Shown one piece after another: positions 28,765 to 45,349 of a DNA stretch of 64,000 nucleotides. The translations under genes were made by a program, and so were the position numbers. The notes beneath the pieces were generated by a model, which saw only the letters and a program-made list of their open reading frames with translations, ran no database searches and was not told where the DNA came from. The DNA is from a virus. Taxonomy: Duplodnaviria > Heunggongvirae > Uroviricota > Caudoviricetes. Position 1 is the first letter of the stretch; each line of letters opens with the position of its first letter. The stretch is from positions 1 to 64,000 of IMG/VR virus record IMGVR_UViG_3300047548_001036; one strand, written 5' to 3'.

Positions 28765-28984
28765 GGATTTTAGTACCAGGCGCCCTCATTTGATTAATGT
28801 TTGCATACTGATAAACGTCCTCCATGTACCCGCTGTTGTAGATATCTTGGTATATACCTGCGTAATAGTCAGGATAGTAGTATGGGTGATAGACATAATG
28901 TGGATAATACCGAGGATAATAACGGGGATAATAATGATAGTAATGATCGTAATACATAATATCTTCCTTTAAATAATCCACCAA
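28733..28984 (-). CDS. tyrosine-rich small protein (YYPRYYPRYYPHYVYHPYYYPDYY)
   Basis: ORF; extreme Tyr content. Confidence 0.4.
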   Translation of the reverse strand: MVDYLKEDIMYYDHYYHYYPRYYPRYYPHYVYHPYYYPDYYAGIYQDIYNSGYMEDVYQYANINQMRAPGTKIRASKRSNKRK

Positions 28985-29421: not shown

Positions 29422-29432
29422 TCTTATTCTCC

Positions 29433-30130
<698 letters not shown>

Positions 30131-30144
30131 ACAAAACGAACGGA

Positions 30145-31044: not shown

Positions 31045-31114
31045 AATTTTCTCCTAATTAGATTATGTCTTGAGCAGATAAAATATCATCTGCTCATAAT
31101 TACTTAAAAAGGTT

Positions 31115-31150
31115 TAGGTCCTAAAAACCTAAACCTTTGTTGATGGTTAT
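31115..31150 (-). terminator. rho-independent terminator (minus strand)
   Basis: AGGTTTAGG-loop-CCTAAACCT followed by TTTTT on minus strand. Confidence 0.55.
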
Positions 31151-31159
31151 ACTTCGGTA

Positions 31160-31741: not shown

Positions 31742-31760
31742 GGTGCTCTCCTCCATGTAC

Positions 31761-32534: not shown

Positions 32535-32703
32535 TTTTAATCTCCCTATAATAATACTTACGCACTAGTAGTACAAGGCATGATGTGCACGAGTACTACC
32601 TGTACTTCAGCATATGTAATTGTGACAGCCAATTTCAATAATTTTACGCTACTATTTGATAGATGTCTATGCATCCGACTTTTATTTTTGCTAACTAATC
32701 CAG

Positions 32704-32737
32704 TTGACTTTACAGCTAAAGTGCGCTATAATACAGC
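32704..32737 (+). promoter_or_regulatory. sigma70 consensus promoter TTGACT-17-TATAAT + conserved cassette
   Basis: TTGACT 32704-09, TATAAT 32727-32. Confidence 0.65.
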
Positions 32738-32739
32738 TA

Positions 32740-33056
32740 TGACAGAACACTGCTATGTTGCATATTTTGACTGCTTGGGTTTCGAGTGCATTTTGGATGC
32801 AACCGCACATGACCGAAAACGGACTTGGAATGCCTTACAGGACAAATCTAGTGAACGGTTTCCTTTAACTGAGTTACTCTTGCGAGCTAGGCTTAATACA
32901 CAACGAAACCCCGAAGTCTGGAGCTTTTGGAGTGAGATTGACCTAGAAACACTTAACCGTTATTCGATCGAAATGCCGCAGCAATTTGCAGATCTCATTC
33001 GTGAAAAAGGTACTCCTCTTTACCAATCAGGTAAACAATCGCAAGTTATCAAATAA
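32740..33056 (+). CDS. hypothetical protein (105 aa)
   Basis: ATG 8 nt after -10 box (near-leaderless). The ORF-list start 32580 spans the promoter. Confidence 0.45.
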
Positions 33057-33132
33057 GCATGATATGGTATAGAGATGTTACCGTTCGAAAGCATTTGAAT
33101 ATCGATTTGTGTCAAAGTATTATGGTGATCAT

Positions 33133-33528
33133 ATGAATATTGGTGTTTACAGCAGAATTAAAATTCTGAAAGATTTTGAATACTGGGGCGTACCCCAGTA
33201 TTATGCAGATCCGATCTATAACTATCTAATACACGGATTTGATCCAGGCAGCTTCTTTACCAGCGTGTTAGCTAATGACTTTGTGGGCGCAGTTAGGCAT
33301 AGCCACGTCAGCAACAACATGGAGTCTCTGAAACACCTTTGCGGCTGGATGAATGAATTCTTACCCAAACAACTTTGGGGCAACTACAATAAAGTAAACA
33401 ACTGGGTGTTAAAATCAGATCAGGAACGCCGTGAATTTCTTGAAAAAGAGCGTATAATCTTTACTGAAAAAGAAGAAACTTGGAAAACTCTGCAGGGAGA
33501 AGATACCTGGGAACCCATGTTATTTTAA
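33133..33528 (+). CDS. hypothetical protein (131 aa)
   Basis: ORF; ORF opens at 33109. Confidence 0.45.
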   Translation: MNIGVYSRIKILKDFEYWGVPQYYADPIYNYLIHGFDPGSFFTSVLANDFVGAVRHSHVSNNMESLKHLCGWMNEFLPKQLWGNYNKVNNWVLKSDQERREFLEKERIIFTEKEETWKTLQGEDTWEPMLF

Positions 33529-33532
33529 TACC

Positions 33533-33781
33533 ATGAACATGAACGAAAATATTCAAGAGCTAGCCGAGCAAGCAGGGTTTTATGTTGCGATGTTCGATCC
33601 AGGTAACCAAGAAAACGCAAAGCTAGAACGCTTTGCTGAATTGATAATTAAACGATCCGCTGATCTGATCGCCATGCATGCAGGTCAACTGAGACAGTTT
33701 AACTTTGAACTAAACGCCAAGACTGCAGATACCGCAGCGGGGTTATTGCTAGAGCACTTTGGATTTAAGGAAACACAATGA
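33533..33781 (+). CDS. FAELIV..HFG family small protein (outlying member)
   Basis: MNENIQELAEQAGFY...RFAELIIKR...HFGFKE. Confidence 0.55.
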   Translation: MNMNENIQELAEQAGFYVAMFDPGNQENAKLERFAELIIKRSADLIAMHAGQLRQFNFELNAKTADTAAGLLLEHFGFKETQ

Positions 33782-34173
33782 GCGATACACTTGAACATGT
33801 TGTAGCAGACGGCGTGCAGTTTCTGCAGAGCCTTACTGCACATTATGGTGCAGAAAAAGGCATGGAAGTGTGGGAAGCAATGAGCGCGGCTGTAGGCAAC
33901 GAAGTTAAAGGCAAAGTATTCTTTGCCATGCTCACTGGTGCCGGCGGAGGCAAGCGAGTTAAGTTCACAACTGGAAATCCTACGTTTGCCGTTAACGGAG
34001 CAGTTGCTTGCATTAAGGCAATGAGGTCAGCCACTCGTATGCTAGACTTGAAGGCAGCTAAGGACCTGTATGATCAAAGCAAGACAGGTTATGTGACTTG
34101 CACTGCGGACAGTCCGGAACAAGCTCGTATGCTTATACGAGATCTTCGCGACTTAGGATGTGTGATTTCCTAA
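33778..34173 (+). CDS. hypothetical protein (131 aa)
   Basis: ATGA-coupled ORF. Confidence 0.5.
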   Translation: MSDTLEHVVADGVQFLQSLTAHYGAEKGMEVWEAMSAAVGNEVKGKVFFAMLTGAGGGKRVKFTTGNPTFAVNGAVACIKAMRSATRMLDLKAAKDLYDQSKTGYVTCTADSPEQARMLIRDLRDLGCVIS

Positions 34174-34175
34174 TT

Positions 34176-34195
34176 CTGTGTTATAATAAACTAAC
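34176..34195 (+). promoter_or_regulatory. conserved phage promoter cassette
   Basis: CTGTGTTATAATAAACTAAC. Confidence 0.6.
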
Positions 34196-34210
34196 AAACA
34201 AGGAACTAAT

Positions 34211-34765
34211 ATGATTACTCTCAAAGATTGGCTGGAAGCAATTAATTATCGTATCACTGGCGGCGATGAATATGGCTGGAACTGCTTTGGTAACAATGCC
34301 AGGATGCTAGATAGCTGGGACAACGACCAAGACGGTGTTCATTCCAGTATTGTTTTTGATACAGTTACACAAGAAGTTTACCTAGCTGAAGTAAATGATT
34401 ATGCACGCAATCGTGCATATCGGTTGGTTAATCCTGTCTACAACGATGCACGTATTAGCGAAGCCGCAGCCCGCAATGTCGACGATGATGTTGCGTGGGA
34501 AGAAGTTAACTTTGTAGATCTCGAAACTGACGAAGACTTTCTAGAAAAATGTCAGGCTATCATGAACTACGAAGATTACGATGTGCGTGTGGCCGTTCCT
34601 TTGGAAATGGATCAAGAAAATCTGTTTCGTCTTATGAAACTGGCACACGAGCGAGACATTACACTTAATCAACTAGTTGAGCAGGCTATTCTCAACGCGC
34701 TTGATGAGTTTGAACAGAATCCTGTAGAATTTGCAGCTCGACTAAAGGAATATGCGCATGGCTAA
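34211..34765 (+). CDS. hypothetical acidic protein (184 aa)
   Basis: ORF after promoter. Confidence 0.55.
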   Translation: MITLKDWLEAINYRITGGDEYGWNCFGNNARMLDSWDNDQDGVHSSIVFDTVTQEVYLAEVNDYARNRAYRLVNPVYNDARISEAAARNVDDDVAWEEVNFVDLETDEDFLEKCQAIMNYEDYDVRVAVPLEMDQENLFRLMKLAHERDITLNQLVEQAILNALDEFEQNPVEFAARLKEYAHG

Positions 34766-34958
34766 AGTTTGGCTTAATAAAGAGGACATTGATGCAATTC
34801 AACGCATCTTGGGGCAATTTCCCGATGTCTATCGGTTCCGGCTACACGAGCACAGCCAAAGTGGAATTGGCAGTTGTATTGACATGGTTTTTGATGCCGA
34901 AGTCAACCAAACTAAGTGTAAGATAACCGTGCCTATCGCCGACGAAACAAAATGGTAA
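34752..34958 (+). CDS. hypothetical protein (68 aa)
   Basis: ORF. Confidence 0.45.
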   Translation: MRMAKVWLNKEDIDAIQRILGQFPDVYRFRLHEHSQSGIGSCIDMVFDAEVNQTKCKITVPIADETKW

Positions 34959-35191
34959 AACAAATACTGGCTTTTCTTAAGTGGAAAATTTCAAAGTATA
35001 CAGTGTCTGATTATCTTTGGATGACAGCTTGTATCATGGTTGCGGTTGGCTATTATTATGCCCATTGGGTATTTTGGATCGGGCTAACACTAGGTGCAGG
35101 AAGCATATTTAGTTTCCTAATTCGAATCCAATGGGAGCAATGGAAGCAAGAACGTAATAAATTGTTTGAAACAATCAAGGACGGAAAATGA
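34952..35191 (+). CDS. small membrane protein (79 aa)
   Basis: two hydrophobic helices. Confidence 0.45.
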   Translation: MVKQILAFLKWKISKYTVSDYLWMTACIMVAVGYYYAHWVFWIGLTLGAGSIFSFLIRIQWEQWKQERNKLFETIKDGK

Positions 35192-35667
35192 AGAAGATTT
35201 TTTATACCAAAGAAGTTTCTGCTGGAGGGAAAGTCAAGTATGTTCCCGTGGCCGAGTATGATAACGATTACCTTGATAGCTTTCCAAAAGGTAATCACTT
35301 GGTCATGTGTTATCCGGGCGGTAAATCTCGTAGATTCAATATAGATCCGGATTATGCCGCCATGATCGCAGCGGGAAGGGTTGCAGAGGATGCTATTTGT
35401 GATGCTATTCGCAAGGCGGCTGAACTACGTCCGGCTAAGACTCCCATCACCGACCAACAACTAGCTGCTTGGAAAGCCCTGGCCGAGGCTTTCGGTGACG
35501 AATTGTGTACGCTTAACGGGTTATGCATACATGGCGTTGCGGTTGCGGGTGTTAAGGCAATGCAAGCAGAGGCTGACAAGCTATTGGCTAATCCTGCAGT
35601 AAAGAAAGCGTATGAGCATTTTCAAATGATCTGTAGTCTTACACGAGAACAAGAATCGAAAGTATGA
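35188..35667 (+). CDS. hypothetical protein (159 aa)
   Basis: ATGA-coupled ORF. Confidence 0.5.
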   Translation: MKKIFYTKEVSAGGKVKYVPVAEYDNDYLDSFPKGNHLVMCYPGGKSRRFNIDPDYAAMIAAGRVAEDAICDAIRKAAELRPAKTPITDQQLAAWKALAEAFGDELCTLNGLCIHGVAVAGVKAMQAEADKLLANPAVKKAYEHFQMICSLTREQESKV

Positions 35668-35945
35668 TTACTACAATCTGGGCACTTGAGCAAGATAAGT
35701 TTGATGAGGCCGACATGTCATGGTGCACGGGGTTGGGAGTAACAGTTAAAGTAGAGCCACTTTATTCTATGACTTACTCCTATGGACAATACGTAGGACA
35801 AGTAGTTCACGGATTGCGTATTAGACTAGCTAGTCTAAATAAAAAACAAGAAAATATGCTAAAGTTAAAGTACGGCAATCGACTTATAGAAATTCAAAGA
35901 TATACGGAACTTGACGAACATGAGCTACGCAACCTCAACTTCTAA
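35664..35945 (+). CDS. hypothetical protein (93 aa)
   Basis: ORF. Confidence 0.45.
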   Translation: MITTIWALEQDKFDEADMSWCTGLGVTVKVEPLYSMTYSYGQYVGQVVHGLRIRLASLNKKQENMLKLKYGNRLIEIQRYTELDEHELRNLNF

Positions 35946-36246
35946 AGCTGGATCTATACTAGAGTTTGTGCAGAGAGAAAAAGAATTGCACAAACAAAAG
36001 TACTTGCAACAAACAGTTGGAGAGGTATTATCTAATCCTATGAGCACAGGTATTAAAGACTGGGACAAGCGTTTTGCAACCCAAGGCTACTACTATGTGC
36101 CAATACCAATACGCAAAGGGTCGATTATTCAGATAATCGAGTGGTGCAATACACAATTCGGTAAAGACCACTTCTCTTTTGCCGCTGGTAAAATTTGGTT
36201 TGAAACGGAAAAGGCTGCTAACTGGTTTGTATTAAGGTGGAGTTAA
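35920..36246 (+). CDS. WC..G / TLFxLRWS family small protein (array member 1)
   Basis: IIEWCNTQFGKDH ... ANWFVLRWS; ORF opens at 35911. Confidence 0.55.
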   Translation: MSYATSTSKAGSILEFVQREKELHKQKYLQQTVGEVLSNPMSTGIKDWDKRFATQGYYYVPIPIRKGSIIQIIEWCNTQFGKDHFSFAAGKIWFETEKAANWFVLRWS

Positions 36247-36554
36247 TGAAAAAAGTAATGATACCTATAATTAATAAAGTTATGCCATCCCTAATCGTAC
36301 AAGAGATCACAGGGGTTCAACCTATGGGAGATTTAAGGTCTTATTTTATTCAGTCAAACCATAAAGAAGAAGTTCCGGAAGGATTCGTTGTAGTTGACGT
36401 TAAGTGGTTCTGTTGGGAGATTAAAGAATGGATCGAAAAACAAAACCCAAGCAAATGGAAACCGTCTGAGGATGAACGAAGTTTAGTACTGCACGCACGA
36501 TATATCATTTCTGAAGATTTATATACCATACTCGCATTAAAGTTTTCAAAATGA
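36246..36554 (+). CDS. divergent member of RWS family (…LYTILALKFSK)
   Basis: TAATGA coupling; ORF opens at 36237. Confidence 0.45.
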   Translation: MKKVMIPIINKVMPSLIVQEITGVQPMGDLRSYFIQSNHKEEVPEGFVVVDVKWFCWEIKEWIEKQNPSKWKPSEDERSLVLHARYIISEDLYTILALKFSK

Positions 36555-36778
36555 CCTATCGAGTTAACGTATGCGAACATCCAACCTGGATCAAAGCTTT
36601 TGAAAAATTTGCAGACACTGTTTGGTTTTTTATGCCTGAAACCACGAATGAATTTCGAATACGTGGTGATATAAACGAAGCGCTAAGTGTTTGGCACTGT
36701 AAAAGTATCACAAACACCCCGTTTATCGAGTTTAGATCCGAAAAGGATGCTATAATATTTTTGTTGAGGTGGACATGA
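36551..36778 (+). CDS. RWS family small protein
   Basis: …EKDAIIFLLRWT. Confidence 0.55.
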   Translation: MTYRVNVCEHPTWIKAFEKFADTVWFFMPETTNEFRIRGDINEALSVWHCKSITNTPFIEFRSEKDAIIFLLRWT

Positions 36779-36984
36779 GGCAATTAAACAAGGCCATTTG
36801 GCCGCACTGTATTACTGTTGGGCAAGGCGATAACTACGCCGCCATCACTCGTGCAGAAAAGTGGGCAACACAAAAACTAGGAAAAAAGACACATCGGTGG
36901 ACTATGGTCCAGGGCTATGAATCTACACGGTTCTATTTTAAGGAAGGCCGTGATGCCACATTATTTTCTCTATCATGTCTGTAG
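36775..36984 (+). CDS. RWS family member with degenerate C-terminus (…RDATLFSLSCL)
   Basis: motif truncated relative to next gene (RDATLFSLRWGL). Confidence 0.4.
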   Translation: MRQLNKAIWPHCITVGQGDNYAAITRAEKWATQKLGKKTHRWTMVQGYESTRFYFKEGRDATLFSLSCL

Positions 36985-37214
36985 TAGTTAGAACAAATAA
37001 TCAAGAGAGAACAATAATCGAAATGGATGAGTTATTTCGATGGTGCCTCTCTACATTTGGAATTCCGGGCAACGAGCTCGATTCAACCTGGATGTATGGA
37101 AAAACTCCAGATTGGACCGGATCTTCTCGGCCTAACGGCCCGTGGGATGTCGAATGGATTGAATTTCGAAATGATCGAGATGCCACACTGTTTTCTTTAA
37201 GATGGGGTTTATAA
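36975..37214 (+). CDS. RWS family small protein
   Basis: LFRWCLSTFGIPGN ... RDATLFSLRWGL. Confidence 0.6.
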   Translation: MSVVVRTNNQERTIIEMDELFRWCLSTFGIPGNELDSTWMYGKTPDWTGSSRPNGPWDVEWIEFRNDRDATLFSLRWGL

Positions 37215-37439
37215 ATGAACTGGCAATTTCGATTACGTGAGATTCATGTTCTGCTAATGAATAGCACATCGGAGTTAACTAGTAACGCAGCTGGTTTTGC
37301 AACCTTGATAATGCACCAGCATTATCCGGGTAAATATCGAGTTGTCGAGAATTATGAGCCTGCTCGAGGATGCTTTGAATTCAAACTAAAATTCGACGAT
37401 CCGCGTGAAGAAACATTATTTTTAATAAAATATTCATGA
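37215..37439 (+). CDS. RWS family small protein
   Basis: …REETLFLIKYS. Confidence 0.5.
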   Translation: MNWQFRLREIHVLLMNSTSELTSNAAGFATLIMHQHYPGKYRVVENYEPARGCFEFKLKFDDPREETLFLIKYS

Positions 37440-37648
37440 AACCAATTGACCATGTCATGGCCCATTTTGGGCTATACTTTATGAATGAAATAACACGGCG
37501 TAAAGTGGTCTATTTTCTTAACGAAAATTACCCTGAAGCAACATGGGAGGTTGAATTTTTTAAGGATAATGTTAATCAAAAAATAGTGATCAACCCTGTG
37601 TTCAAAAATCCAAAAGATGAAACTTTCTACCGGTTAATGTGGAGTTAA
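37436..37648 (+). CDS. RWS family small protein
   Basis: …KDETFYRLMWS. Confidence 0.5.
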   Translation: MKPIDHVMAHFGLYFMNEITRRKVVYFLNENYPEATWEVEFFKDNVNQKIVINPVFKNPKDETFYRLMWS

Positions 37649-37649
37649 T

Positions 37650-37880
37650 GTGATCATTTATACGTATCCTAATCCTTTTCCTCTTGGCGGTCACGTAGTA
37701 TCATTTCTTTCTTTTCGGTTAATTGACAACATCAAGGAATGGTGTTATAATACATACGGAGAACCGGGAATACCTACTAATACTACTTCTAGATGGTACG
37801 ACAGCATAAAATATGGAGAAATTTTATTTAGAGATGAAAGAGATGTAACATTATTCTTACTGAGATGGTCAAGCGAATGA
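37650..37880 (+). CDS. RWS family small protein
   Basis: IKEWCYNTYGEPG ... RDVTLFLLRWSSE. Confidence 0.6.
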   Translation: MIIYTYPNPFPLGGHVVSFLSFRLIDNIKEWCYNTYGEPGIPTNTTSRWYDSIKYGEILFRDERDVTLFLLRWSSE

Positions 37881-38299
37881 TAAGCAAACTTAAACATTGG
37901 ATTTCCCAAAAACTGTTAGCTCGTAAGCTACGTAAAAGCGGATTCCGTACCTGGGAAGCGTACAATCGTTGGTACGATCCAGATGTTGACCAACGAGCGC
38001 ACCGTGTAGAAGATTTCTACTGCGGTTATCCCTATGTTTACTGCTTTGAAGATCGAGGACACCATGCTTATCAATTAATTTATGATCACGGTCCCGGCGG
38101 ATATAAAGATGCTATCGATACTATCAGTGAATGGTGTAAACATACATGTAAAGATAAAACCAGGATTGATTTTCACAGAGTATCCAAAGAAAGCTGGGAT
38201 ACTCGGTGGGTAGTTAATGAACTAGGTGGCGGAGATTATATATTTGTAGCATTTAAAAGTGAAAGAGATTACCTATGGTTTCTAATGAAGTGGTCGTAA
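37876..38299 (+). CDS. RWS family protein (larger, 141 aa)
   Basis: ISEWCKHTCKDKT ... RDYLWFLMKWS; ATGA overlap. Confidence 0.55.
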
Positions 38300-38493
38300 C
38301 TGTAGACCTTGGTCCTTTATCTTATAAGTTAGCTAGAGACATCATCTTCTGGTGCTATCGAAACGGACATGATCAAGAAAAGTGCCACGAGCTAATTAAT
38401 TACATGTGCAGTGTTGCTCCTCCAGAAGTATTAGACTGGACTGTAACGCTTCCTGAAAAGAACTTTACTTGGTTTTTACTAAAGCACTCATGA
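38275..38493 (+). CDS. RWS family small protein
   Basis: IIFWCYRNGHDQ ... KNFTWFLLKHS. Confidence 0.5.
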   Translation: MVSNEVVVTVDLGPLSYKLARDIIFWCYRNGHDQEKCHELINYMCSVAPPEVLDWTVTLPEKNFTWFLLKHS

Positions 38494-38717
38494 AACGTTT
38501 AGATTACGAAGTAATAGTCCCTCGAAGATCGGTGCATGAGAATGTACAAATAGATCTATGGTGTACTAAGCAATGGGGTCTGAGATGGGATCCTATTGAT
38601 AATCGAGAAGGACATTGGGCAGTATTTTGGGCAGGACCGAAAATTCGTCCAAGTTCTTTCAGATGGCGTTTTGATACACAAGAACGCGCTAACTGGTTTG
38701 CACTGAAGTGGCTATGA
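38490..38717 (+). CDS. RWS family small protein
   Basis: IDLWCTKQWGLRW ... RANWFALKWL; ATGA overlap. Confidence 0.55.
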   Translation: MKRLDYEVIVPRRSVHENVQIDLWCTKQWGLRWDPIDNREGHWAVFWAGPKIRPSSFRWRFDTQERANWFALKWL

Positions 38718-38929
38718 AATATAGAATCATAGAACTCGGACCCTGGGCAATAAAAGGCCATCCTTACGACTGTAAAATAGAATTAATTGACTACGGACTC
38801 GATACACGTGAGCAAATCGCGGATTGGTTAGAAGAATCTAAAATTCCGCACTTCACATTCGGACGAACAAGTTCGGTTATTTACTTAGAGAAAAAACACG
38901 CTACTTGGTTTGCACTACGATGGACTTGA
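38714..38929 (+). CDS. RWS family small protein
   Basis: …KKHATWFALRWT. Confidence 0.55.
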   Translation: MKYRIIELGPWAIKGHPYDCKIELIDYGLDTREQIADWLEESKIPHFTFGRTSSVIYLEKKHATWFALRWT

Positions 38930-39129
38930 CTTTACCTTTTACCGGCAATCACCGCGCCGTGTCGTATGTTCGAGAAAAATATAAGTTAAAAGACTACCAA
39001 ACTTCAGCCGAACTTTTTGAGAAAGAATTCAACTGTAAGATAAAGTGGAACTGGGGAGATTGCTATATTGAATTTAATGATGAAAAATCTTACATATGGT
39101 ATCAACTAAAATGGTCAACGTCTTCTTAA
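38920..39129 (+). CDS. RWS family small protein
   Basis: …EKSYIWYQLKWSTSS. Confidence 0.5.
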   Translation: MDLTLPFTGNHRAVSYVREKYKLKDYQTSAELFEKEFNCKIKWNWGDCYIEFNDEKSYIWYQLKWSTSS

Positions 39130-39344
39130 CCGATAAAGGCATTGCTTACCGAGATACCGAGCAGCACTTTGCTAGTATAGATGCATGGGCACAGAAATAC
39201 TGCCCAACATACGTAGGGTATCATGTGCAAGATGTTAGCGACGTTAGTTACTACTACGACCAAATTGCCTGCTATCAATTTAACGAAGAACGGTGTGCAA
39301 ACTGGTTTAAATTAAAGTGGAGCAGCAATGAGTGCCGTAGTTAG
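39111..39344 (+). CDS. RWS family small protein
   Basis: IDAWAQKYCPTY ... RCANWFKLKWSS. Confidence 0.5.
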   Translation: MVNVFLTDKGIAYRDTEQHFASIDAWAQKYCPTYVGYHVQDVSDVSYYYDQIACYQFNEERCANWFKLKWSSNECRS

Positions 39345-39525
39345 TTTAAAATACGACCCTGCTTGGGTAGCGTTAGACTGGGCAAAAAAGCACTGCCGCA
39401 GCTACATTACTAATGTGCAAGCATCTGCTATAAATTATCCGGCGGGCGTTAAAATCAACTACTATTTTGCTAGCGAACGAGATGCGTTTTTGTTTAAACT
39501 ACGGTGGAGCGATCAAGTTGTCTAA
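39328..39525 (+). CDS. RWS family small protein
   Basis: VALDWAKKHCRSY ... RDAFLFKLRWSDQVV. Confidence 0.55.
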   Translation: MSAVVSLKYDPAWVALDWAKKHCRSYITNVQASAINYPAGVKINYYFASERDAFLFKLRWSDQVV

Positions 39526-39739
39526 ACAGGATTATTGCATACACTTTGCCGAAGTGTCGCACCTTTCTATGCAAGAAAGATTTGAAGCTGCTATGTGGTG
39601 CTTAATTCGATTTGATCAAGCTACAGTAGATCTGTTTGGAACTAAACAAGTAATCGGCCGATATAGCACCGAAACTGTTTACGGTTTCTACTTTGCTAGA
39701 GAAAAAGATGTTACAATGTTTAGACTAGCATGGGGATGA
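39467..39739 (+). CDS. RWS family small protein (start uncertain)
   Basis: …KDVTMFRLAWG. Confidence 0.45.
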   Translation: MLANEMRFCLNYGGAIKLSKQDYCIHFAEVSHLSMQERFEAAMWCLIRFDQATVDLFGTKQVIGRYSTETVYGFYFAREKDVTMFRLAWG

Positions 39740-39742
39740 TAA

Positions 39743-39895
39743 ATGAACTGGCAATATAACGGAGTAGCACCGTGGACTGACATTGTAGATTGGTGTTGGT
39801 CTACGTTTGGTGCAGATAATGTTTCAGCTAAGTGGGAAACTATTCATTTTAGCCGCCCTCGAGACTACACTTTATTTTTGTTAAAGTGGGGATAA
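39743..39895 (+). CDS. RWS family small protein (50 aa)
   Basis: IVDWCWSTFGADN ... RDYTLFLLKWG. Confidence 0.5.
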   Translation: MNWQYNGVAPWTDIVDWCWSTFGADNVSAKWETIHFSRPRDYTLFLLKWG

Positions 39896-39896
39896 C

Positions 39897-40106
39897 ATGA
39901 AAACTCTTCCTAAACATCCGTACTTACAAAATATTGTTAACGAATATCATCGCGTAAGCGGTGGAACTTGGCCGGTAGGGCCTGAATACAGATATTGGCT
40001 TGCCCAGTTTGGATTTAAAGTTCCTGTACGAGAAGACTACCTAGAGTTTCCGGATGACTTTAGCGAAAAAGAACTGCTACTGTTTACTATAAGGTTCGGC
40101 GGATGA
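39897..40106 (+). CDS. RWS family small protein
   Basis: …KELLLFTIRFGG. Confidence 0.5.
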   Translation: MKTLPKHPYLQNIVNEYHRVSGGTWPVGPEYRYWLAQFGFKVPVREDYLEFPDDFSEKELLLFTIRFGG

Positions 40107-40360
40107 GACAATTAACTACACTTACAAAAACTTGGAAGGGTGTAGAGTACTATTGCGTTGATGTAGAAATGAATGACCCGGATGCAAGTAATAGCTTAAC
40201 TACTTGGATAGCAATGCAGAGGTGGTGTATAAATCTGCTAGGGCCGCAAGGAGACCCGTGGGAAGAGTCGGTTCCAAGGTGGTATTTTAACAACAGCAAG
40301 TTTTGGTTTAGAGAAGATCATAACCGGACACTGTTTATACTAAGATGGTCTCATGGTTAG
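40103..40360 (+). CDS. RWS family small protein
   Basis: WIAMQRWCINLLGP ... HNRTLFILRWSHG. Confidence 0.6.
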   Translation: MRQLTTLTKTWKGVEYYCVDVEMNDPDASNSLTTWIAMQRWCINLLGPQGDPWEESVPRWYFNNSKFWFREDHNRTLFILRWSHG

Positions 40361-40532
40361 AATATGCATACAGTGCCCTATTACTTGGGCCGACCAGCTT
40401 GCGTGGATTCATCAACGGTGTAAAAATTACCGTGATGTTACCAACTGGCGAAGTTGGTGTTTAGGCGTTCATCCTATTTACTACGAGCTCACAGAAAAAG
40501 ATGCCACTCTATTTCATCTTAGGTGGAGCTAA
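40353..40532 (+). CDS. RWS family small protein (59 aa, below ORF-track cutoff)
   Basis: my translation: MVRICIQCPITWADQLAWIHQRCKNYRDV...EKDATLFHLRWS. Confidence 0.45.
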   Translation: MVRICIQCPITWADQLAWIHQRCKNYRDVTNWRSWCLGVHPIYYELTEKDATLFHLRWS

Positions 40533-40747
40533 TGGACTACAAAGCTGTCATCGCACTTAAAACTAATAATGTTTGGGACACAGAAGCTCGTGTTAATGAG
40601 ATATGGGAGATTAAAGAATGGCTAGACGAATTAGTAAAATGGCAAAGAGGGATGTATTCTGTGCAATATTTAACAACTAGCCAACAATTACTGGTTTGGT
40701 TCAGAGAAGAACGACATGCAACGATGTGCTCCTTGAGGTGGTCATGA
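40532..40747 (+). CDS. RWS family small protein
   Basis: IKEWLDELVKWQRG ... RHATMCSLRWS; TAATG coupling. Confidence 0.55.
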   Translation: MDYKAVIALKTNNVWDTEARVNEIWEIKEWLDELVKWQRGMYSVQYLTTSQQLLVWFREERHATMCSLRWS

Positions 40748-41121
40748 GTTTAAGGATGCTATGGAAAATGAATAAAAAATCAAGCGACTGGTGGGTGCTT
40801 GACGTTATAAGTAACCGTAAGCAGTTGGTTAATATCTGGCATACAGTCTGGTGGAAATTGATGCCTGGAACGGAAATTAAAGTGCCGTGGCCACATGGAT
40901 GGACTGAACCCGTAGTGTCAGCAGACGGTAGTATTGTTCAAACAGAATCCAGTGACCCAAACGACCATTATAGGCCGTGGCTTGTTAAAAATGTAGGCCG
41001 GCAAGGATGGGACTGGCAGTGGGATCTACGCGACTACGACATCATTGATAATACATTAACTATTAAGTTTCGGCAAGGAAAATCAAAGTGGGCAACGGTT
41101 GCAGCAATTAAATGGAGTTAA
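40744..41121 (+). CDS. RWS family protein (125 aa)
   Basis: …KSKWATVAAIKWS; ATGA overlap. Confidence 0.5.
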   Translation: MSLRMLWKMNKKSSDWWVLDVISNRKQLVNIWHTVWWKLMPGTEIKVPWPHGWTEPVVSADGSIVQTESSDPNDHYRPWLVKNVGRQGWDWQWDLRDYDIIDNTLTIKFRQGKSKWATVAAIKWS

Positions 41122-41122
41122 C

Positions 41123-41545
41123 ATGAGAGCACAAGATTACATATACCTATTTGAAAAAAACTTAAACAAGTTCTGTTCGCAGTATCGAGCCCATGTAAAA
41201 GCAGGACAACCGATGCGTAGAGTTGATCCTATATGGGCCGATCCTATCTCTAATAATTATCGTGATTTTCATGTGACTACATACGAAGTTCCTACCGTGG
41301 AGATCGTTATTAGTGAAAATGATTTATCTGCGCTAATGAACGACCTTGCTGAAATGGATACGTCGGAGTATAACGAATTTGTAAGATACAATAAAATTTT
41401 AGGCCGAGGGTTTATGAACGATCTACAAACATACAAATATCGCCAGTCTAAGGAAGAACACATAAGAAATCAAAACCCTGGAGTAAAAAAAGCTTGGGAA
41501 AACTATCAGCTTATGCTAAAATTAGCAGGGAATAATACACAATGA
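41123..41545 (+). CDS. hypothetical protein (140 aa), not a family member
   Basis: GGAG RBS; ORF opens at 41099. Confidence 0.5.
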   Translation: MRAQDYIYLFEKNLNKFCSQYRAHVKAGQPMRRVDPIWADPISNNYRDFHVTTYEVPTVEIVISENDLSALMNDLAEMDTSEYNEFVRYNKILGRGFMNDLQTYKYRQSKEEHIRNQNPGVKKAWENYQLMLKLAGNNTQ

Positions 41546-41664
41546 ATAAAATTTCTTATACTATTAGGTGGCAACAAAACTACAATACCTGGGATCAGCT
41601 GGAGATCCCAATTACAGATTTTACAGAAGCTCGAGCAGTATTAGACAGGATCATGAAACTATGA
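41542..41664 (+). CDS. tiny ORF (40 aa) MNKISYTIRWQQ..., possible family remnant
   Basis: ATGA-coupled at both ends. Confidence 0.25.
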   Translation: MNKISYTIRWQQNYNTWDQLEIPITDFTEARAVLDRIMKL

Positions 41665-41894
41665 CCGTAGCACATATGAAACTAAAAACCTGTGAAGTTG
41701 GCTTGTTTAGACTTCCGGGTATAGTTATAGAACATGACAAAGATGTAGGAGACTCGGAAATGAAGCGGCGGCTTGACGAAGCAGAGGTGTGGAGTGAAGA
41801 AACTAACTGTGGTAAGCGTATGAATGACTACTTGTGGTCTTTCCGCAACGAAAAGCAGAGAGACATGTTTATACTTAGATGGAGTGAACAATAA
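41661..41894 (+). CDS. RWS family small protein
   Basis: …KQRDMFILRWSEQ; ORF opens at 41568. Confidence 0.5.
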   Translation: MTVAHMKLKTCEVGLFRLPGIVIEHDKDVGDSEMKRRLDEAEVWSEETNCGKRMNDYLWSFRNEKQRDMFILRWSEQ

Positions 41895-42003
41895 TGGGGC
41901 AGGGTACACCACCTTGAATCGACGAAAATTTAATTCCGGAATTGTTGATGCACAAAATAAATTTCAAATAATTGACAATAAGATAGTTGAATACCGCAGG
42001 ATC

Positions 42004-42246
42004 ATGGTGCATCAGTTTACGGTCAAAGAAGAAGACACTGAACTGTTTGCATCAACTGAGCTCTGGAAATGGCAACAGAGCGAACAAGGCAAATGGGTAA
42101 TAGAACATGCTGTAGAACAACCGGAATGGCATATCATTGACAATCCTACCTGGTTTGTCACCAAGGTTGCAGTGATTGCCAGGTTGTCGGGGAAGGACAT
42201 AACATTTTGGGAGCTTAAATGGGGGAACACTATTAGACAACTCTAG
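42004..42246 (+). CDS. RWS family small protein (start uncertain; ORF opens at 41824)
   Basis: LWKWQQSEQGKW ... KDITFWELKWGNT. Confidence 0.4.
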   Translation: MVHQFTVKEEDTELFASTELWKWQQSEQGKWVIEHAVEQPEWHIIDNPTWFVTKVAVIARLSGKDITFWELKWGNTIRQL

Positions 42247-42252
42247 TATTAT

Positions 42253-42273
42253 GTTGTATAATATATGTACACA
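42253..42273 (+). promoter_or_regulatory. conserved phage promoter cassette
   Basis: TGTTGTATAATATATGTACAC. Confidence 0.55.
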
Positions 42274-42291
42274 GACACTAAAGAGGCTTGT

Positions 42292-42642
42292 ATGACTGGA
42301 TATAGTACCGTAATTAAACTTCGTCGATTCGAAGAAGATATCGATAAACTTGGTCTGCGCATGGCATACCCCAAATATGGTGGGCTTAGTAACCAGGGAT
42401 ACGGGGAAGTTCTAGCTCTGCTTCCCAAAGACAATGACAGCCTTCCTATATACAGTCGAGATGCAGAACTGTTTGTTGGCACACTGGAGCAAGCTGAAGA
42501 ATGGCTTCGAGGTGTCGCCTGGGCAAGGCAATACGATCAGCTATTAGGACTAACGGATGACAAAAAACGAGAAAGAAAAGAACAGATTGAACGAAATCGT
42601 TTGTTGCTTAGAACAATTAAAGAACCAGGGGCTGTTAACTAA
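42292..42642 (+). CDS. hypothetical protein (116 aa)
   Basis: AAAGAGG RBS after promoter. The ORF-list start 42265 lies within the -10 region. Confidence 0.5.
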   Translation: MTGYSTVIKLRRFEEDIDKLGLRMAYPKYGGLSNQGYGEVLALLPKDNDSLPIYSRDAELFVGTLEQAEEWLRGVAWARQYDQLLGLTDDKKRERKEQIERNRLLLRTIKEPGAVN

Positions 42643-42664
42643 CTCTAACCGCTACACAATACAC

Positions 42665-42856
42665 ATGTCACGTATGAATAAAACACTTACCCCAAACACT
42701 GCCTGGACTGATCAGGAAGGACAGAAGTTTGTAGTCACCGGACTTAACCAACAGAAATCTCAAACCTGGGTCACTTATAAAAAAGTATCCAACGGACTAA
42801 CATTCAAGTGTCTTGTCCCGGCATTCCTGCAACGATTTTTTGAATTTATTAACTAA
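42665..42856 (+). CDS. hypothetical protein (start uncertain; ORF opens at 42557)
   Basis: ORF. Confidence 0.3.
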   Translation: MSRMNKTLTPNTAWTDQEGQKFVVTGLNQQKSQTWVTYKKVSNGLTFKCLVPAFLQRFFEFIN

Positions 42857-42865
42857 GGCAACTAC

Positions 42866-43226
42866 TGTGGACATTTTTCTCTTGGCTCTAATTTGTGGAA
42901 TCGTTGGCTTTGTTTTGGGCTGGCTTATGCATGCAAAAGTGCTTGCCGACCGTCTACTGGAAGACCCGGATAGCATGATCAAAGCATTGCAAGACTACAA
43001 AGAAGAAGAACAGCTAAATGCTCGATCAACTTCAGCAAATGTACGAGAACTCGAAGTAGAACAAAAGGATGGTGTATTCTATCTGTATGCTAAGGATAAT
43101 GGGCAGTTCCTTTCTCAGGCATCCACACTAGATGATGCACTTGAGCTAGTGTACGAGCGTTTTCCAAATCAAGAATTTCAAGGGGTTATTTCCAAAGAAG
43201 ATGCAAAACGAATGGGTCTGTCCTAA
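42866..43226 (+). CDS. membrane-anchored hypothetical protein (N-terminal TM helix)
   Basis: AAGG RBS + GTG; DIFLLALICGIVGFVLGWLM. Confidence 0.4.
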
Positions 43227-43233
43227 CTAAAGT

Positions 43234-43265
43234 ACAGAGCATTTTCCAAAATGCTCTTTTTTGCC
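43234..43265 (+). terminator. rho-independent terminator
   Basis: AGAGCATTTT-CC-AAAATGCTCT followed by TTTTT. Confidence 0.65.
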
Positions 43266-43289
43266 TTATAAATACATCAAGGTGGCAAT

Positions 43290-44114
43290 ATGAAAACAAG
43301 AGTATTAGTTACAGGACACGATGGCTTTATAGGCCGCAACATGACAAGTTGGTTAGACCAACAAGGCTACCTAGTAGATGGATGGGAATGGGACCCAGAC
43401 ACATTCCCCAATGTAGAAAGCTATGATTGGGTTATACATCTAGGTGCCATTACAGATTCCACAGTGCGCGATGTTGATGCAGTTATGAGACAGAACTTTG
43501 AGTTTAGTCAGCGATTGTTCAACGAATGCAACGCACATGGCACGCATTTTCAGTATGCCAGTACAAGTAGTGTTTACGGAAATACTAAAGATTTTTCTGA
43601 AACAGCACCATGTTTTCCTCAGAGTCCGTACGCATGGAGCAAATACTTGTTCGACCGCTGGGTGTTTCAACAACCACATAACATAATGGTTCAGGGTTTC
43701 CGATATTTCAACGTCTATGGTAAATGGATGCATTTAAGAAAAGGACGAACAAACTTTATATACCGATGCCGTCAACAAGCAAAGAAGCAGGGCTATATCG
43801 AAGTTTGGGAAGGTGCAGAGCATGTGCGCAGGGACTGGACCTGGGTCGGCGACCTATGTCGCTTACATACAGATTTTATTGAATCAGTGGTGGGCAGTGG
43901 TATCTGGAACGTGGGAACGGGACTTTCCCATAGCTTTCTAGACATTGCAGAAACGATTGCAGAACAAGAAGGTGTAGAAATTCGAGAAGTGCCTGTTCCG
44001 GACGAAGAACGAGCCAAATGGAGACAAAGCACCTGTGCCAACCTTAAACATTTAAAAGAAACTGTGGGCAAACGCCCCTGGCTTAATGTTTATGAATGGT
44101 TAGAAAAAGAATAA
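43290..44114 (+). CDS. NAD-dependent epimerase/dehydratase (SDR family; ADP-heptose-6-epimerase / UDP-sugar epimerase-like)
   Basis: N-terminal Rossmann VLVTGHDGFIGRN; size 274 aa. Confidence 0.55.
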   Translation: MKTRVLVTGHDGFIGRNMTSWLDQQGYLVDGWEWDPDTFPNVESYDWVIHLGAITDSTVRDVDAVMRQNFEFSQRLFNECNAHGTHFQYASTSSVYGNTKDFSETAPCFPQSPYAWSKYLFDRWVFQQPHNIMVQGFRYFNVYGKWMHLRKGRTNFIYRCRQQAKKQGYIEVWEGAEHVRRDWTWVGDLCRLHTDFIESVVGSGIWNVGTGLSHSFLDIAETIAEQEGVEIREVPVPDEERAKWRQSTCANLKHLKETVGKRPWLNVYEWLEKE

Positions 44115-44125
44115 ATATTAATACT

Positions 44126-44374
44126 ATGCTAATACACGAATTTATTAATCAACAAGATATCGACGACTTAGACGAAAAGGCCAGTCGAGCACTATGCCTA
44201 AGTACCAAATCAAACAAATCACTGGGTGCAAGTAATTTATCCAGTTGTAAAGCACAAGGCCTACGCTCACGCGAGGGTAAAAAGAAATACAAGATAGGAA
44301 AGAAGAACATCTCAGTTGGTGGACAAAAGGTCAAGGGCGAAAAATATGGTGGCCCAATTCATGATTATGGTTGA
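44126..44374 (+). CDS. hypothetical basic protein (start uncertain)
   Basis: ORF 44096-44374. Confidence 0.3.
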   Translation: MLIHEFINQQDIDDLDEKASRALCLSTKSNKSLGASNLSSCKAQGLRSREGKKKYKIGKKNISVGGQKVKGEKYGGPIHDYG

Positions 44375-44392
44375 TCCACAAGATAGTTAAAA

Positions 44393-45349
44393 ATGAAAGC
44401 TAGAGAATTTTTAAAAGAAGCTAAATCAGCCAAGTATAACAACTTGGCTATGAAGTATGCCTTTAATGATAATGCTTTAATATTGAAGGCATTTTCTAAA
44501 GAAGGCCCGTTAGCTTTCGCCAAATTTCTAAAAGAAGATCAGAATCTTTATCCACAACATCTATTTGTACATGATGACCATCAAAACAAAGGTATTGCTA
44601 AAGCAATGTATGACTATCTAAAGAGTGAAGGTTATACCATTCATAGAAGTCATGATCAAACTAAGGCAGGTGCTGGGTTTTGGGATAATCATCGTGGTAA
44701 AGGGTCGTCAGTTTGGGAAGAAGCTGCACTAGGTGAAGCTCCATTGCCCGCGGACTGGGATCCTGCGCAATATCGGCCAGGCACCACATTCAAGGATCGC
44801 CTAGCTTATGCTTTAGAAAGAGCAAAAAAGCTAGGAACTGGATCCAGTCGAGTTGCCACCATTATTGAATATCAAGGTCGTCCTACAGTGTTAAAGATTG
44901 CAAAAAATCGAAAAGGACTGGCACAAAACTCTGTAGAAGCCAGCATATTAGAGGATTGGTATGCCAAGAAACTGGATATCCTAATCCCTCTGATTGATTA
45001 CGACGAGCAAAATCAAGACCCCACGTGGATTCACACCGAAGTAGCAAATAAAGCTACTGAAAGGCAGTTGTGCAACCTTATGAAATGCGATAACTTAAGT
45101 CAGCTGGTTAATATGTCGAGTTCTATCGCAAAAAGGAAAATGTTTCAAGATCATTTTAGATCCAAAGGCCGAAGTGAAGAGGATATTGAAATCGTCAGTG
45201 AATATGCTGACAAGTTATACGAGCTGTATACAAATTTCGATGTAGAATTAGTGGACATGATCGGCGCCCGTAATTGGGGCATCTACAATGGCAAGCCAGT
45301 TATAATCGATATTGGGTTTAATACCGATGTAATGAAAAGGTTTTATTAA
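44393..45349 (+). CDS. putative capsid-packaged internal protein: CTS-like N-terminus MKAREFLKEA, GNAT-like segment, unknown C-terminal domain
   Basis: N-terminus matches T4 IP capsid-targeting sequence pattern MK..EF(I/L).EA; QNKGIAKAMYDY resembles GNAT motif A. Confidence 0.5.
   Translation: MKAREFLKEAKSAKYNNLAMKYAFNDNALILKAFSKEGPLAFAKFLKEDQNLYPQHLFVHDDHQNKGIAKAMYDYLKSEGYTIHRSHDQTKAGAGFWDNHRGKGSSVWEEAALGEAPLPADWDPAQYRPGTTFKDRLAYALERAKKLGTGSSRVATIIEYQGRPTVLKIAKNRKGLAQNSVEASILEDWYAKKLDILIPLIDYDEQNQDPTWIHTEVANKATERQLCNLMKCDNLSQLVNMSSSIAKRKMFQDHFRSKGRSEEDIEIVSEYADKLYELYTNFDVELVDMIGARNWGIYNGKPVIIDIGFNTDVMKRFY

Follow-up and report, generated by a model that had tools for sequence, protein, structure and literature searches.

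T4-type phages have small early genes in the plastic ("hyperplastic") regions of their genomes, among them those for the host-takeover proteins AsiA, Alc, Ndd, Arn and Dmd. Tandem gene families are also known from large DNA viruses, including the K3L accordion of poxviruses and the repeat-protein families of giant viruses. In T4, the Lit protease is activated by the Gol region of gp23, the major capsid protein, a region that also binds EF-Tu (PMC3014915, PMC9712102).

We describe an array of 24 old paralogs of one small-protein family, 20 of them strongly supported and four divergent, in a T4-like phage genome from a metagenome; the window analysed is a stretch of 64,000 nucleotides, to which all coordinates refer. 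The array resembles the T4 early genes in its tightly packed genes of 50-140 codons, all read from a single strand and with stop codons that overlap the next start, as well as in its rIIA-near accessory location, its putative sigma-70-type promoters and its patchy presence among related phages.

Layout, membership and spread of the array

Twenty-six consecutive plus-strand ORFs of 40-140 aa run head to tail from 35911/35920 to 42246 (Table 1), with practically no intergenic space in 35920-42246. The first-pass annotation had described about 25 paralogous tandem genes, many of them coupled by ATGA or TAATG start-stop overlaps. Such overlaps are indeed present: with ATG starts, 10 junctions are 4-nt ATGA-type and two are 1-nt TAATG overlaps, the others ranging from a 3-nt gap up to longer overlaps. 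Of the 26 ORFs, 24 carry the C-terminal motif F-x-x-E-x-D-x-T-x-F-x-L-(R/K)-W-(S/G), while those at 41123-41545 and 41542-41664 lack it and are not members. The motif co-aligns in all 24. In the proposed N-proximal WC...(F/Y)G motif, the W is shared by at least 90% of members, whereas about half have the C next to it and the (F/Y)G; most of the 24 have the upstream W(C)..(F/Y)G helix. Motif codons vary synonymously, with four Arg, five Ser and five Leu codons in use.

An HMM of the 24 members, run against the 1055 six-frame ORFs of the window, gave no match outside the array; the best non-array score was that of the upstream neighbour (E=0.04), followed by E>=0.6. Leave-one-out profiles placed 16 of the 24 held-out members at E<1e-4 and a further four at E 0.005-0.02, and did not recover the remaining four (36246-36554, 39897-40106, 40744-41121 and 41824-42246). 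The assignment of these four rests on motif and array position, and in three cases also on relatives found elsewhere (P0132 for 40744, P0008 for 41824 and, for g02, relatives of the fusion type). Two members previously read as double-length (37877-38299 and 40744-41121) proved to consist of a single C-terminal domain with an N-terminal extension, not of two domains, whereas the deviant SLSCL ending of 36775-36984 is real; its TCA TGT codons contain the start codon ATG of g05.

Table 1. Array genes and neighbouring features (E, leave-one-out E-value; dN/dS, against the close relative L092).
Feature	Coordinates	Strand	aa	E	dN/dS	Remarks
rIIA	1869-4160
Putative promoter, sigma-70-like	32704-32732	+				11/12 matches; heads plus-strand block containing the array
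g01, member	35920-36246	+	108	2.4e-9		ends ANWFVLRWS; N-terminal extension, then single C-terminal domain at residues 56-108
g02, divergent member	36246-36554	+	102	missed		N-terminal MKKVMIPIINKVMPSLIVQEITGVQPM; C-terminus ...ILALKFSK
g03, member	36551-36778	+	75	6.9e-7		...DAIIFLLRWT
g04, member, altered ending	36775-36984	+		3.1e-6		...RDATLFSLSCL
g05, member	36975-37214	+	79	7.9e-9		first protein modelled
g06, weak member	37215-37439	+	74	0.021		...REETLFLIKYS; junction and MNWQ start in common with g17 (repeat D2)
g07, weak member	37436-37648	+	70	0.015		...KDETFYRLMWS
g08, member	37650-37880	+	76	1e-12	0.20	GTG start; IKEWCYNTYG ... RDVTLFLLRWSSE; second protein modelled
Putative promoter inside g08	37723-37751	+				TTGACA, 17 nt, TGnTATAAT; 12/12 matches, TG present
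g09, member	37877-38299	+	140	3.9e-7	0.08	73-aa N-terminal extension; one domain, residues 74-140
g10, weak member	38275-38493	+	72	0.022	0.08	...FTWFLLKHS
g11, member	38490-38717	+	75	0.0047	0.20	IDLWCTKQWG ... RANWFALKWL
g12, member	38714-38929	+	71	3.7e-5	0.05	...KHATWFALRWT
g13, member	38920-39129	+	69	3.4e-5	0.04	...KSYIWYQLKWSTSS
g14, member	39096-39344	+	82	1.6e-7	0.07	length from 39096; MVSTKM start kept by orthologs (P0002)
g15, member	39328-39525	+	65	5.3e-7	0.09	...RDAFLFKLRWSDQVV
g16, member	39482-39739	+	85	2.4e-5	0.28	...KDVTMFRLAWG
g17, minimal member	39743-39895	+	50	1.3e-8
g18, motif-only member	39897-40106	+	69	missed	0.06	...KELLLFTIRFGG; conserved in L092
g19, member	40103-40360	+	85	2.8e-8		QRWCINLLG ... 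RWYFNNSKFWFREDHNRTLFILRWSHG; relatives P0016, P0017
g20, member	40353-40532	+	59	9.7e-7
g21, member	40532-40747	+	71	3.4e-8	0.06	...RHATMCSLRWS
g22, divergent member	40744-41121	+	125	missed		N-terminal extension; single domain, residues 53-125; ...ATVAAIKWS; relative P0132 ends canonically
g23, non-member inside array	41123-41545	+	140			family profile E=1.7; no Pfam match; ortholog at L001 12781-13209, likewise within the L001 array
g24, non-member	41542-41664	+	40			putative ORF
g25, member	41661-41894	+	77	5e-4		length from 41661 ATG; alternative start GTG at 41568; ...RDMFILRWSEQ
g26, divergent member	41824-42246	+		missed		start uncertain, 41824 to 41914; single domain, residues 79-139; ...KDITFWELKWGNTIRQL; close ortholog P0008
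Strong sigma-70 consensus site	42234
Intrinsic-terminator-like hairpin	43236-43257	+				9-bp stem and T run; ~1 kb past the array end

The domain family, which the first reading had not recognised, has no match in Pfam, PHROGs, NCBIfam, PADLOC or PDB either, and the array domain matches no T4 protein in sequence or structure. A profile search nevertheless retrieved 1457 protein clusters (50% identity) at E<=1e-3. In IMG/VR, motif-pattern matches pointed to 119 stretches, all of which hold true members (up to 17 each) and 108 of which hold at least two, always on one strand. Other contigs, of 142-278 kb, carry arrays with 9-12, 17 and 31 or more members, the largest on one contig of 164 kb, and related phages differ in copy number from 0 to at least 31. 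Among prokaryotic genomes (185,579 species, 596 Gb) the family was found on two MAG contigs only. It turns out to be very large, phage-specific and usually organized in arrays.

Predicted fold and evolution of the paralogs

Two members were modelled with AlphaFold (AF2). Each array gene is predicted to encode a Trp-rich soluble domain of ~50-60 residues, in which a beta-hairpin and a helix (W-C..F-G) are followed by another beta-hairpin and the C-terminal helix (E-x-D-x-T-x-F-x-L-R-W). The g05 model (pLDDT 77, pTM 0.64) places FRWCLSTF in a helix at 14-28, followed by a strand at 59-64 and a helix at 67-77 with DATLFSLRW; the g08 model, from 149 sequences, has a b-b-a-b-b-a arrangement (pLDDT 83, pTM 0.71). 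The two conserved motifs thus appear as two helices of one small fold, and it is these helices that reach the highest pLDDT in both models. Since conservation falls mostly on large hydrophobic residues, together with an E-x-D that caps a helix, the two end motifs would form the structural core, with the variable residues predicted to sit in loops, surfaces and N-terminal extensions. The family alignment contains no conserved polar or catalytic residues and no conserved histidines.

Array genes were compared with those of a close relative, L092 (74-79% DNA identity; 12 orthologous pairs). Per-gene dN/dS was 0.04-0.28 in 11 of the 12 pairs, with saturated dS (0.6-2.6); for g19 dS was not computable. 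Conservation spans the whole length of each compared paralog, contrary to the earlier impression of hypervariable middles. The paralogs are kept by purifying selection, and the array ORFs are real, selected proteins. The accompanying suggestion of rapid diversification finds no support either: the paralogs are old, no pair exceeds ~45% identity, blastp links only 23 of 276 pairs at E<1e-3, and there are no recent duplicates among them, DNA repeats being limited to short motif stretches. Recognisable orthologs of individual paralogs are present in several contigs. A whole-gene cassette, g17, is missing from L092. It has TGGGGAT(G)A(T)AA on both sides, where the W-G-stop codons of g16 and of g17 itself provide a TGGGGAT microhomology; entire genes are gained and lost through recombination in the repeated 3' motif and the junction.

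Expression context and putative function

We infer that the array lies in an accessory, early-type part of the T4-like genome, downstream of rIIA. A minus-strand gene block ends at 32534, ahead of the promoter-like site that heads the plus-strand block. The -10 of the g08-internal site is built from C-Y-N-T codons; its L092 counterpart keeps the entire -10 and 5/6 positions of the -35, and L089 has similar promoter sites ahead of its array. Promoter-like sites are not commoner than in shuffled sequence (39 vs 31 ± 5), and only the top-scoring ones are suggestive. Judged from these signals, the array is probably transcribed as a polycistronic message by the host sigma-70 RNA polymerase, which would read it early. 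Translation is probably coupled along the array: stop codons overlap the following starts, and the (R/K)-W-(S/G) codons (ARR TGG RG) would double as ribosome-binding sites for the next gene. Ahead of ~11 of 25 downstream starts, at a distance of 7-12 nt, they form Shine-Dalgarno sequences of the GGTGGAG or TGGGG type, and AGG encodes the motif Arg in 7/14 cases, against 10/116 elsewhere (p=4e-4).

The N-terminal segment of g02 aligns with positions 5-30 of Pfam PF07068 (Gp23); its score of 21.5 bits (E=1.8e-4) falls short of the gathering score, 24.4. In hhalign, the g02-type fusion subfamily, which comprises at least 569 clusters (105-167 aa in the best 120) and whose members related to g02 have the canonical C-terminus, matches MCPs at 96.6% (E=5.5e-10) on T4 gp23 residues 92-140, where an alignment of four MCPs has its highest density of invariant residues. 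We take this segment to include or overlap the EF-Tu-binding Gol region, presumably residues 93-122 of gp23. With its copy of this best-conserved gp23 segment, g02 probably engages whatever binds that segment.

Host takeover, anti-defence or a modular binding scaffold constitute the most plausible class of putative roles. Within it we tentatively favor, as a real possibility, that the array supplies a repertoire of small, early-transcribed modules for binding, an idea that rests on the absent catalytic features and on context. The wide pI span of the members, 4.6 to 9.9, likewise speaks for it. Members would act as small protein-binding modules, each with a different host, defence or phage partner, the capsid-segment copy in g02 serving to engage the partner(s) of that gp23 segment. 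A rather unlikely alternative is a set of fast-evolving arms-race effectors, rapidly amplified and diversified, with positively selected hypervariable middles that track host defences. The strong divergence of the paralogs outside the motifs (mean column identity 14%), the wide range of copy numbers and the whole-gene indel between close relatives would suit such effectors; the low full-length dN/dS at saturated dS, the lack of similar pairs or longer DNA repeats and the orthologs of individual paralogs would not. Given purifying selection and the age of the paralogs, a classical arms-race set fits less well than a stable housekeeping-like repertoire.

It is also unlikely that the members are tied to the structural proteins whose segments some of them carry, as assembly helpers, decoration, internal (packaged) proteins or head-assembly regulators. 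In addition to the large gp23 fusion subfamily, a tail-fibre-like N-terminal motif of P0023, matching 15 PHROGs (large virion or unknown proteins), and a weak match of P0203 to the middle of a major-head PHROG point in this direction. However, the array is situated in the rIIA-side accessory region, not within a structural module; g02 alone among the 24 members has the capsid-like segment, which may therefore say little about the others; the N-termini are not conserved, leaving no common capsid-targeting sequence; and hhalign, with a probability of 0.3%, shows no relationship between the domain proper and the capsid protein. Small regulators of translation or transcription, binding nucleic acids through an eIF1/KH-like alpha/beta fold, are very improbable given the heterogeneous charge of the members (pI 4.6-9.9; 7 acidic and 7 basic of 24), the single R/K before the final W as the only conserved basic residue, and the difficulty of squaring one target with dozens of paralogs per genome. 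The Shine-Dalgarno-type codons, the AGG enrichment and the indel breakpoints within motif sequence could even suggest a repeated DNA element, such as a recombination site or a cassette for ribosome binding or coupling, that is read as protein, with no true family behind it. This reading is already largely refuted and its probability negligible: conservation begins at least 14 residues ahead of the SD-like codons while synonymous sites vary freely, another motif located 30-50 residues upstream co-varies with this one, the fold is predicted with confidence, the profile retrieves its many clusters as proteins, and dN/dS is well under 1.

Relation to known systems

At the level of the fold only, the array domain resembles DCoH/pterin-4a-carbinolamine dehydratase (PDB 2ebb, 1uso; acRAF RuBisCO assembly factor 4low), with 3-10% identity; profile searches against Pfam and PDB sequences gave no match, and unlike that fold, it has no conserved histidines or other catalytic residues. 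The fusion subfamily including g02 shares with the Gol region of T4 gp23 a segment homologous to residues 92-140; here, however, the segment is joined to an unrelated domain of 50-60 residues in a protein of 100-160 aa, rather than forming part of an HK97-fold capsid protein. As in gene accordions, many tandem paralogs lie on one strand and recombination between copies produces differences in copy number, but the array copies are old, highly diverged and individually conserved instead of being recent, near-identical amplifications. The putative repertoire of binding modules can be likened to the small early host-takeover proteins of T4; while few of the T4 early genes are related to each other, the array consists of 20-24 neighbouring paralogs of one domain, and of at least 31 elsewhere.

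Composition of the array and probable double use of gene ends

The array consists of 26 back-to-back ORFs of 40-140 codons on the + strand, running from 35911/35920 to 42246, and in 24 of them the C-terminal motif F-(R/K)-x-E-(R/K)-D-x-T-x-F-x-L-(R/K)-W-(S/G) is found at the stop codon or a few residues before it. These 24 proteins co-align at the motif and share a Trp 30-50 residues upstream, often in the context (I/L)-x-(E/D)-W-C-x-x-x-(F/Y)-G; the ORFs at 41123-41545 and 41542-41664 lack the motif. In the 64-kb window, an HMM of the 24 members run against 1055 six-frame ORFs detected no further copies. Leave-one-out profiles recovered 16 of the 24 at E<1e-4 and four more at E 0.005-0.02, and missed g02 (36246), g18 (39897), g22 (40744) and g26 (41824), numbered by their order in the array, which are counted as divergent members. 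The tandem array with shared end motifs that the first-pass annotation had described is confirmed by co-alignment, HMM and leave-one-out searches; the two long members it called double-length each consist of a single domain with an N-terminal extension, and the aberrant SLSCL ending it noted at 36775-36984 exists because these codons hold the ATG of the next gene. True two-domain proteins, with two family domains per chain, do occur among the relatives (P0029, P0034, P0129 and P0163) and none is encoded in the window. The first non-member, g23 (140 aa), is unrelated to the family, has no Pfam or PHROG match, and has an ortholog at the same relative place in a 142-kb contig (L001:12781-13209).

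When ATG starts are taken, ATGA-type overlaps of 4 nt occur at ten junctions and TAATG overlaps at two, the remainder ranging from a 3-nt gap to longer overlaps; at TTAAGGTGGAGTTAATG-type junctions (e.g., 36232-36248, 37634-37650 and 40518-40534) the stop overlaps the start. With the terminal (R/K)-W-(S/G) coded as ARR TGG RGN, about 11 of the 25 junctions have GGTGGAG, TGGAG or TGGGG at a distance of 7-12 nt upstream of the following start codon. For the motif Arg, AGG is used in 7 of 14 cases, as opposed to 10 of 116 at other positions of these genes (Fisher p=4e-4). We infer that the final codons of each gene serve as the ribosome-binding (Shine-Dalgarno) site of the next, and this double use would partly account for proteins that end exactly at the motif.

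A 2.9-kb metagenome contig (L092), with DNA identity of 78.6% to 37665-39737 and 73.5% to 39886-40766, lacks the 50-codon g17 (39743-39895; window 39737-39895 versus L092:2060-2080). In the window, g17 lies between GCATGGGGATGATAAATG and AAGTGGGGATAACATG, which encode W-G-stop at the ends of g16 and g17, and at the breakpoint L092 has a single hybrid copy of the flanking sequence, the indel breakpoints falling within the repeated TGGGGAT(A/G)A. It follows that recombination in the conserved 3' motif adds or removes whole cassettes. The array presents a clear case of dual coding, in which C-terminal codons are also a predicted ribosome-binding site and a recombination target for cassettes.

Selection, age and predicted fold

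The array genes encode real, selected proteins. In 11 of 12 orthologous pairs with L092, dN/dS is 0.04-0.28 at dS 0.6-2.6 (for g19, the twelfth, dS was not computable), and the low values span the whole gene length, also in g10 and g18, both weak members, and in the variable middles. DNA repeats within the array are only 14-50 nt long, 60-94% identical, and located on motifs and junctions; an explanation of the array as a pure DNA-repeat artefact, the motif being a DNA element alone, is refuted by the free variation of synonymous codons at the motif (Arg as AGG, AGA, CGA or CGG; Ser as AGT, AGC, TCA, TCG or TCT; five Leu codons). No paralog pair exceeds ~45% protein identity, blastp E<1e-3 is reached by only 23 of the 276 pairs, and the longest direct repeats (42-50 nt, 60-78% identity) are confined to motifs and junctions, which points to an old, maintained repertoire and not to recent amplification; a recent ‘gene accordion’ was rejected given the absence of near-identical DNA copies. 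The first-pass annotation had proposed rapid diversification from ‘hypervariable middles’. A fast-evolving arms-race set of this kind is contradicted both by dN/dS, low in the middles too, and by the age of the paralogs.

Confident AlphaFold2 models were obtained for g05 (pLDDT 77, pTM 0.64) and, from a 149-sequence alignment, for g08 (pLDDT 83, pTM 0.71), the latter with a beta-beta-alpha-beta-beta-alpha topology. As modelled, the W-C..F-G motif corresponds to the first helix, E-x-D-x-T-x-F-x-L-R-W provides both the N-cap and the body of the C-terminal helix, and these two segments are the highest-confidence parts; since both helices would lie on the same sheet face in such a two-layer fold, they should pack together, a possibility already raised in the first-pass annotation. 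The nearly invariant columns among the 149 sequences (W, W, F, F, L, W) belong to the core and do not make up a catalytic set. The proteins, which are soluble, have an unusually high Trp content (5.7%) and heterogeneous charge (pI 4.6-9.9, net charge -4 to +6). In the models they share the fold of PCD/DCoH (pterin-4a-carbinolamine dehydratase), but its conserved catalytic histidines and profile membership are absent, and no Pfam or PDB profile match links the two. Profile searches of the PDB gave nothing below E=0.17, and Foldseek against BFVD returned only uncharacterised proteins of uncultured phages.

Relatives and their N-terminal additions

The domain has no match in Pfam, PHROGs, NCBIfam, PADLOC or PDB sequences. 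Searches of all array members against Pfam, PHROGs, NCBIfam and PADLOC gave nothing besides an N-terminal Gp23 match of g02, with no known anti-phage defence in PADLOC and no meaningful NCBIfam match. When 1.84 billion cluster representatives were searched with the profile, 1457 proteins were recovered at E<=1e-3, most of them 55-140 aa long and ending ...LRWS; the source names obtained all read ‘hypothetical protein’. A degenerate DNA pattern for the motif matched at least 119 IMG/VR stretches; among the matches listed, HMM-confirmed members were present in 119 of 119, two or more in 108 and up to 17 per stretch, on one strand in every stretch. Applied to 596 Gb of genomes from 185,579 prokaryotic species, this pattern gave eight matches, only two of them real, both freshwater Bacteroidota MAG contigs and again small arrays. 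Against 50,697 phage records, megablast of the array found no match, nor did tblastn of the HMM consensus or of one relative (P0041) against phages; another relative (P0017) gave a single weak match, to Sinorhizobium jumbo phage Phosso, in which the HMM finds about three members, all annotated ‘hypothetical’. This was the only cultured phage found to have members.

Copy number varies from zero to at least 31. The 142-kb contig L001 has the same flanks (a 159-aa gene upstream, the epimerase downstream), 9-12 members and the g23 ortholog; most of 80 IMG/VR loci with the shared upstream gene are without members and some have 1-7; unrelated large contigs carry 17 members (278 kb) or at least 31 within 12 kb (164 kb). 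The family is large and phage-specific, tandem arrays of the kind first noticed in the window are its normal state, and the array in the window is one of the larger cases. In further large phage contigs, arrays adjoin auxiliary genes: an eIF-1a/IF1-like gene, an Fe-superoxide dismutase gene and an Fe-S assembly gene (L087/L088, 13680-14777) or NAMPT and NUDIX/NMNAT genes (L089, 442-3722).

The first 27 residues of g02, MKKVMIPIINKVMPSLIVQEITGVQPM (window 36246-36335), match the start of Pfam Gp23, the major capsid protein of T4-type phages (PF07068; model positions 5-30 of 376, 21.5 bits, E=1.8e-4), and none of the other 23 members does. We rejected g02 as a Gp23 capsid protein, given that the HK97-fold body is unmatched and the score is below the gathering score of 24.4. 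The same model positions are matched by 7 of 149 relatives at up to 43.6 bits, and a profile of 15 fusion proteins found at least 569 clusters, of which the best 120 are all 105-167 aa long, score E 1e-25 to 1e-35 and with few exceptions carry a stored PF07068 match. In profile-profile comparison the fused segment (25-49 residues) corresponds to T4 gp23 residues 92-140 (96.6%, E=5.5e-10), the most conserved block of the capsid protein; for the family domain itself, derivation from the capsid protein was rejected at an hhalign probability of 0.3%. We take this block to overlap the Gol region, presumably gp23 residues 93-122. Gol is listed among capsid-derived immune triggers (PMC9712102).

All PHROG matches among the 149 relatives stem from N-terminal additions of a few proteins and not from the domain, those other than major-head matches coming from P0023 alone. 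Residues 2-46 of P0023 carry a tail-fibre-type motif, GTTxxRPxxPxxGxxRYN...W, fused to the family domain; the motif is typical of large phage fibre and virion proteins and matches 15 PHROGs. Mimicry of the terminase Walker A by GRQTGKS-like N-termini (P0031, P0057) had no profile support. Together, the g02-type fusions and the P0023 motif suggest that the domain can carry short functional peptides, a lead that concerns one gene of the array.

Genomic setting and possible function

The window comes from a distant T4-like phage, with a tail fibre resembling those of Methylophilales phage Melnitz and Pelagibacter phage Mosig, and the array belongs to a + strand block beginning after a - strand block that ends at 32534.

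Features of the window, and relatives with the capsid-segment fusion
Feature	Position or identifier	Strand	Observation
rIIA	1869-4160		PHROG 612, E=5e-119; identity <=43% to cultured phages
Sigma-70 consensus site	32704		11/12 matches
Sigma-70 consensus, perfect extended	37723-37751	+	12/12 with TG, inside g08 coding sequence
Sigma-70 consensus site	42234		11/12 matches
Terminator-like hairpin	43236		
NAD-dependent sugar epimerase	43290-44114		shortly after array; syntenic in L001 and L095
Collagen-repeat protein, then tail fibre	49573-53713		
1071-aa multi-glycosyltransferase (- strand)	56079-59294		
Capsid-segment fusion relatives	P0020, P0027, P0043, P0050, P0058, P0075, P0234, L095:3128-3454, L089:8655-9047		

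The - strand gene block (27827-32534) interrupts an otherwise + strand window, with a switch in the sign of AT skew, and the divergent region at ~32534-32580 has promoter-like sites on both strands. Within g08, the -10 element of the perfect extended site consists of the W-C motif codons for Cys-Tyr-Asn-Thr; in L092 the -10 is identical and the -35 matches at 5 of 6 positions. Promoter-like sites overall are not enriched over shuffled sequence, which leaves early transcription of the array no more than plausible. The neighbouring small genes have no Pfam or PHROG matches, and Rfam found nothing in 32000-44500.

On the reading with the best support, the array would be an early-region, polycistronic and translationally coupled repertoire of small binding modules, in which one stable fold serves as the base and specificity would reside in loops and N-terminal extensions; each paralog is individually maintained, and cassettes are swapped through recombination at the common 3' motif. 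The structural and evolutionary parts of this proposal are established by the comparisons made here; early timing and a binding function are tentative, with chances somewhat short of even. The fusion proteins hint at a role connected with the capsid or virion, but the genome position and the 23 other members argue against such a role. T4-type internal proteins have a conserved N-terminal capsid-targeting sequence, and packaged proteins of this type were rejected, as the family has no conserved N-terminal columns besides the start Met. Weak fold hints would fit nucleic-acid-binding regulators, but the heterogeneous charge argues against a uniform role of this sort or as DNA mimics, and anti-restriction proteins of the Ocr/Arn type were discarded for want of uniform strong negative charge.

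A further reading, which we regard as unlikely, is that the family is a display scaffold, a small stable domain presenting short N-terminal or loop peptides, some of them copies of the most conserved segments in structural proteins of the phage itself, so that the array would combine an arsenal of mimics of its immune-triggering structural motifs with other binders; examples would be the Gol-like segment matching gp23 92-140, present in g02 and at least 569 clusters, and the tail-fibre motif in one relative. If expressed early, such scaffolds could act as decoys or competitors that blunt capsid-triggered host sensors (Lit-like proteases, CapRel-like toxins), or could alternatively occupy EF-Tu beforehand.

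Known inhibitors of host machinery and defence come mainly from small early proteins of phages, most of which belong to no family. In several large aquatic phages, one undescribed domain accounts for between a quarter and a third of the genes in stretches of 6-12 kb, and given its presence in at least 1457 clusters, much phage ‘dark matter’ could be explained by the characterisation of this one fold. The fusion subfamily lends itself unusually well to testing, as it carries the best-conserved capsid segment, taken to include the Gol region, through which EF-Tu is bound and the abortive-infection protease Lit is triggered. Our literature searches found nothing relevant on the family or on capsid-segment decoys, and the family is absent from the libraries searched. 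Small early genes in clusters are well known from T4-type phages. What varies this pattern in a new way is a single undescribed domain occurring 20-30 times over, together with its wide distribution among phages, the junctions with dual coding and the subfamily fused to a capsid segment.
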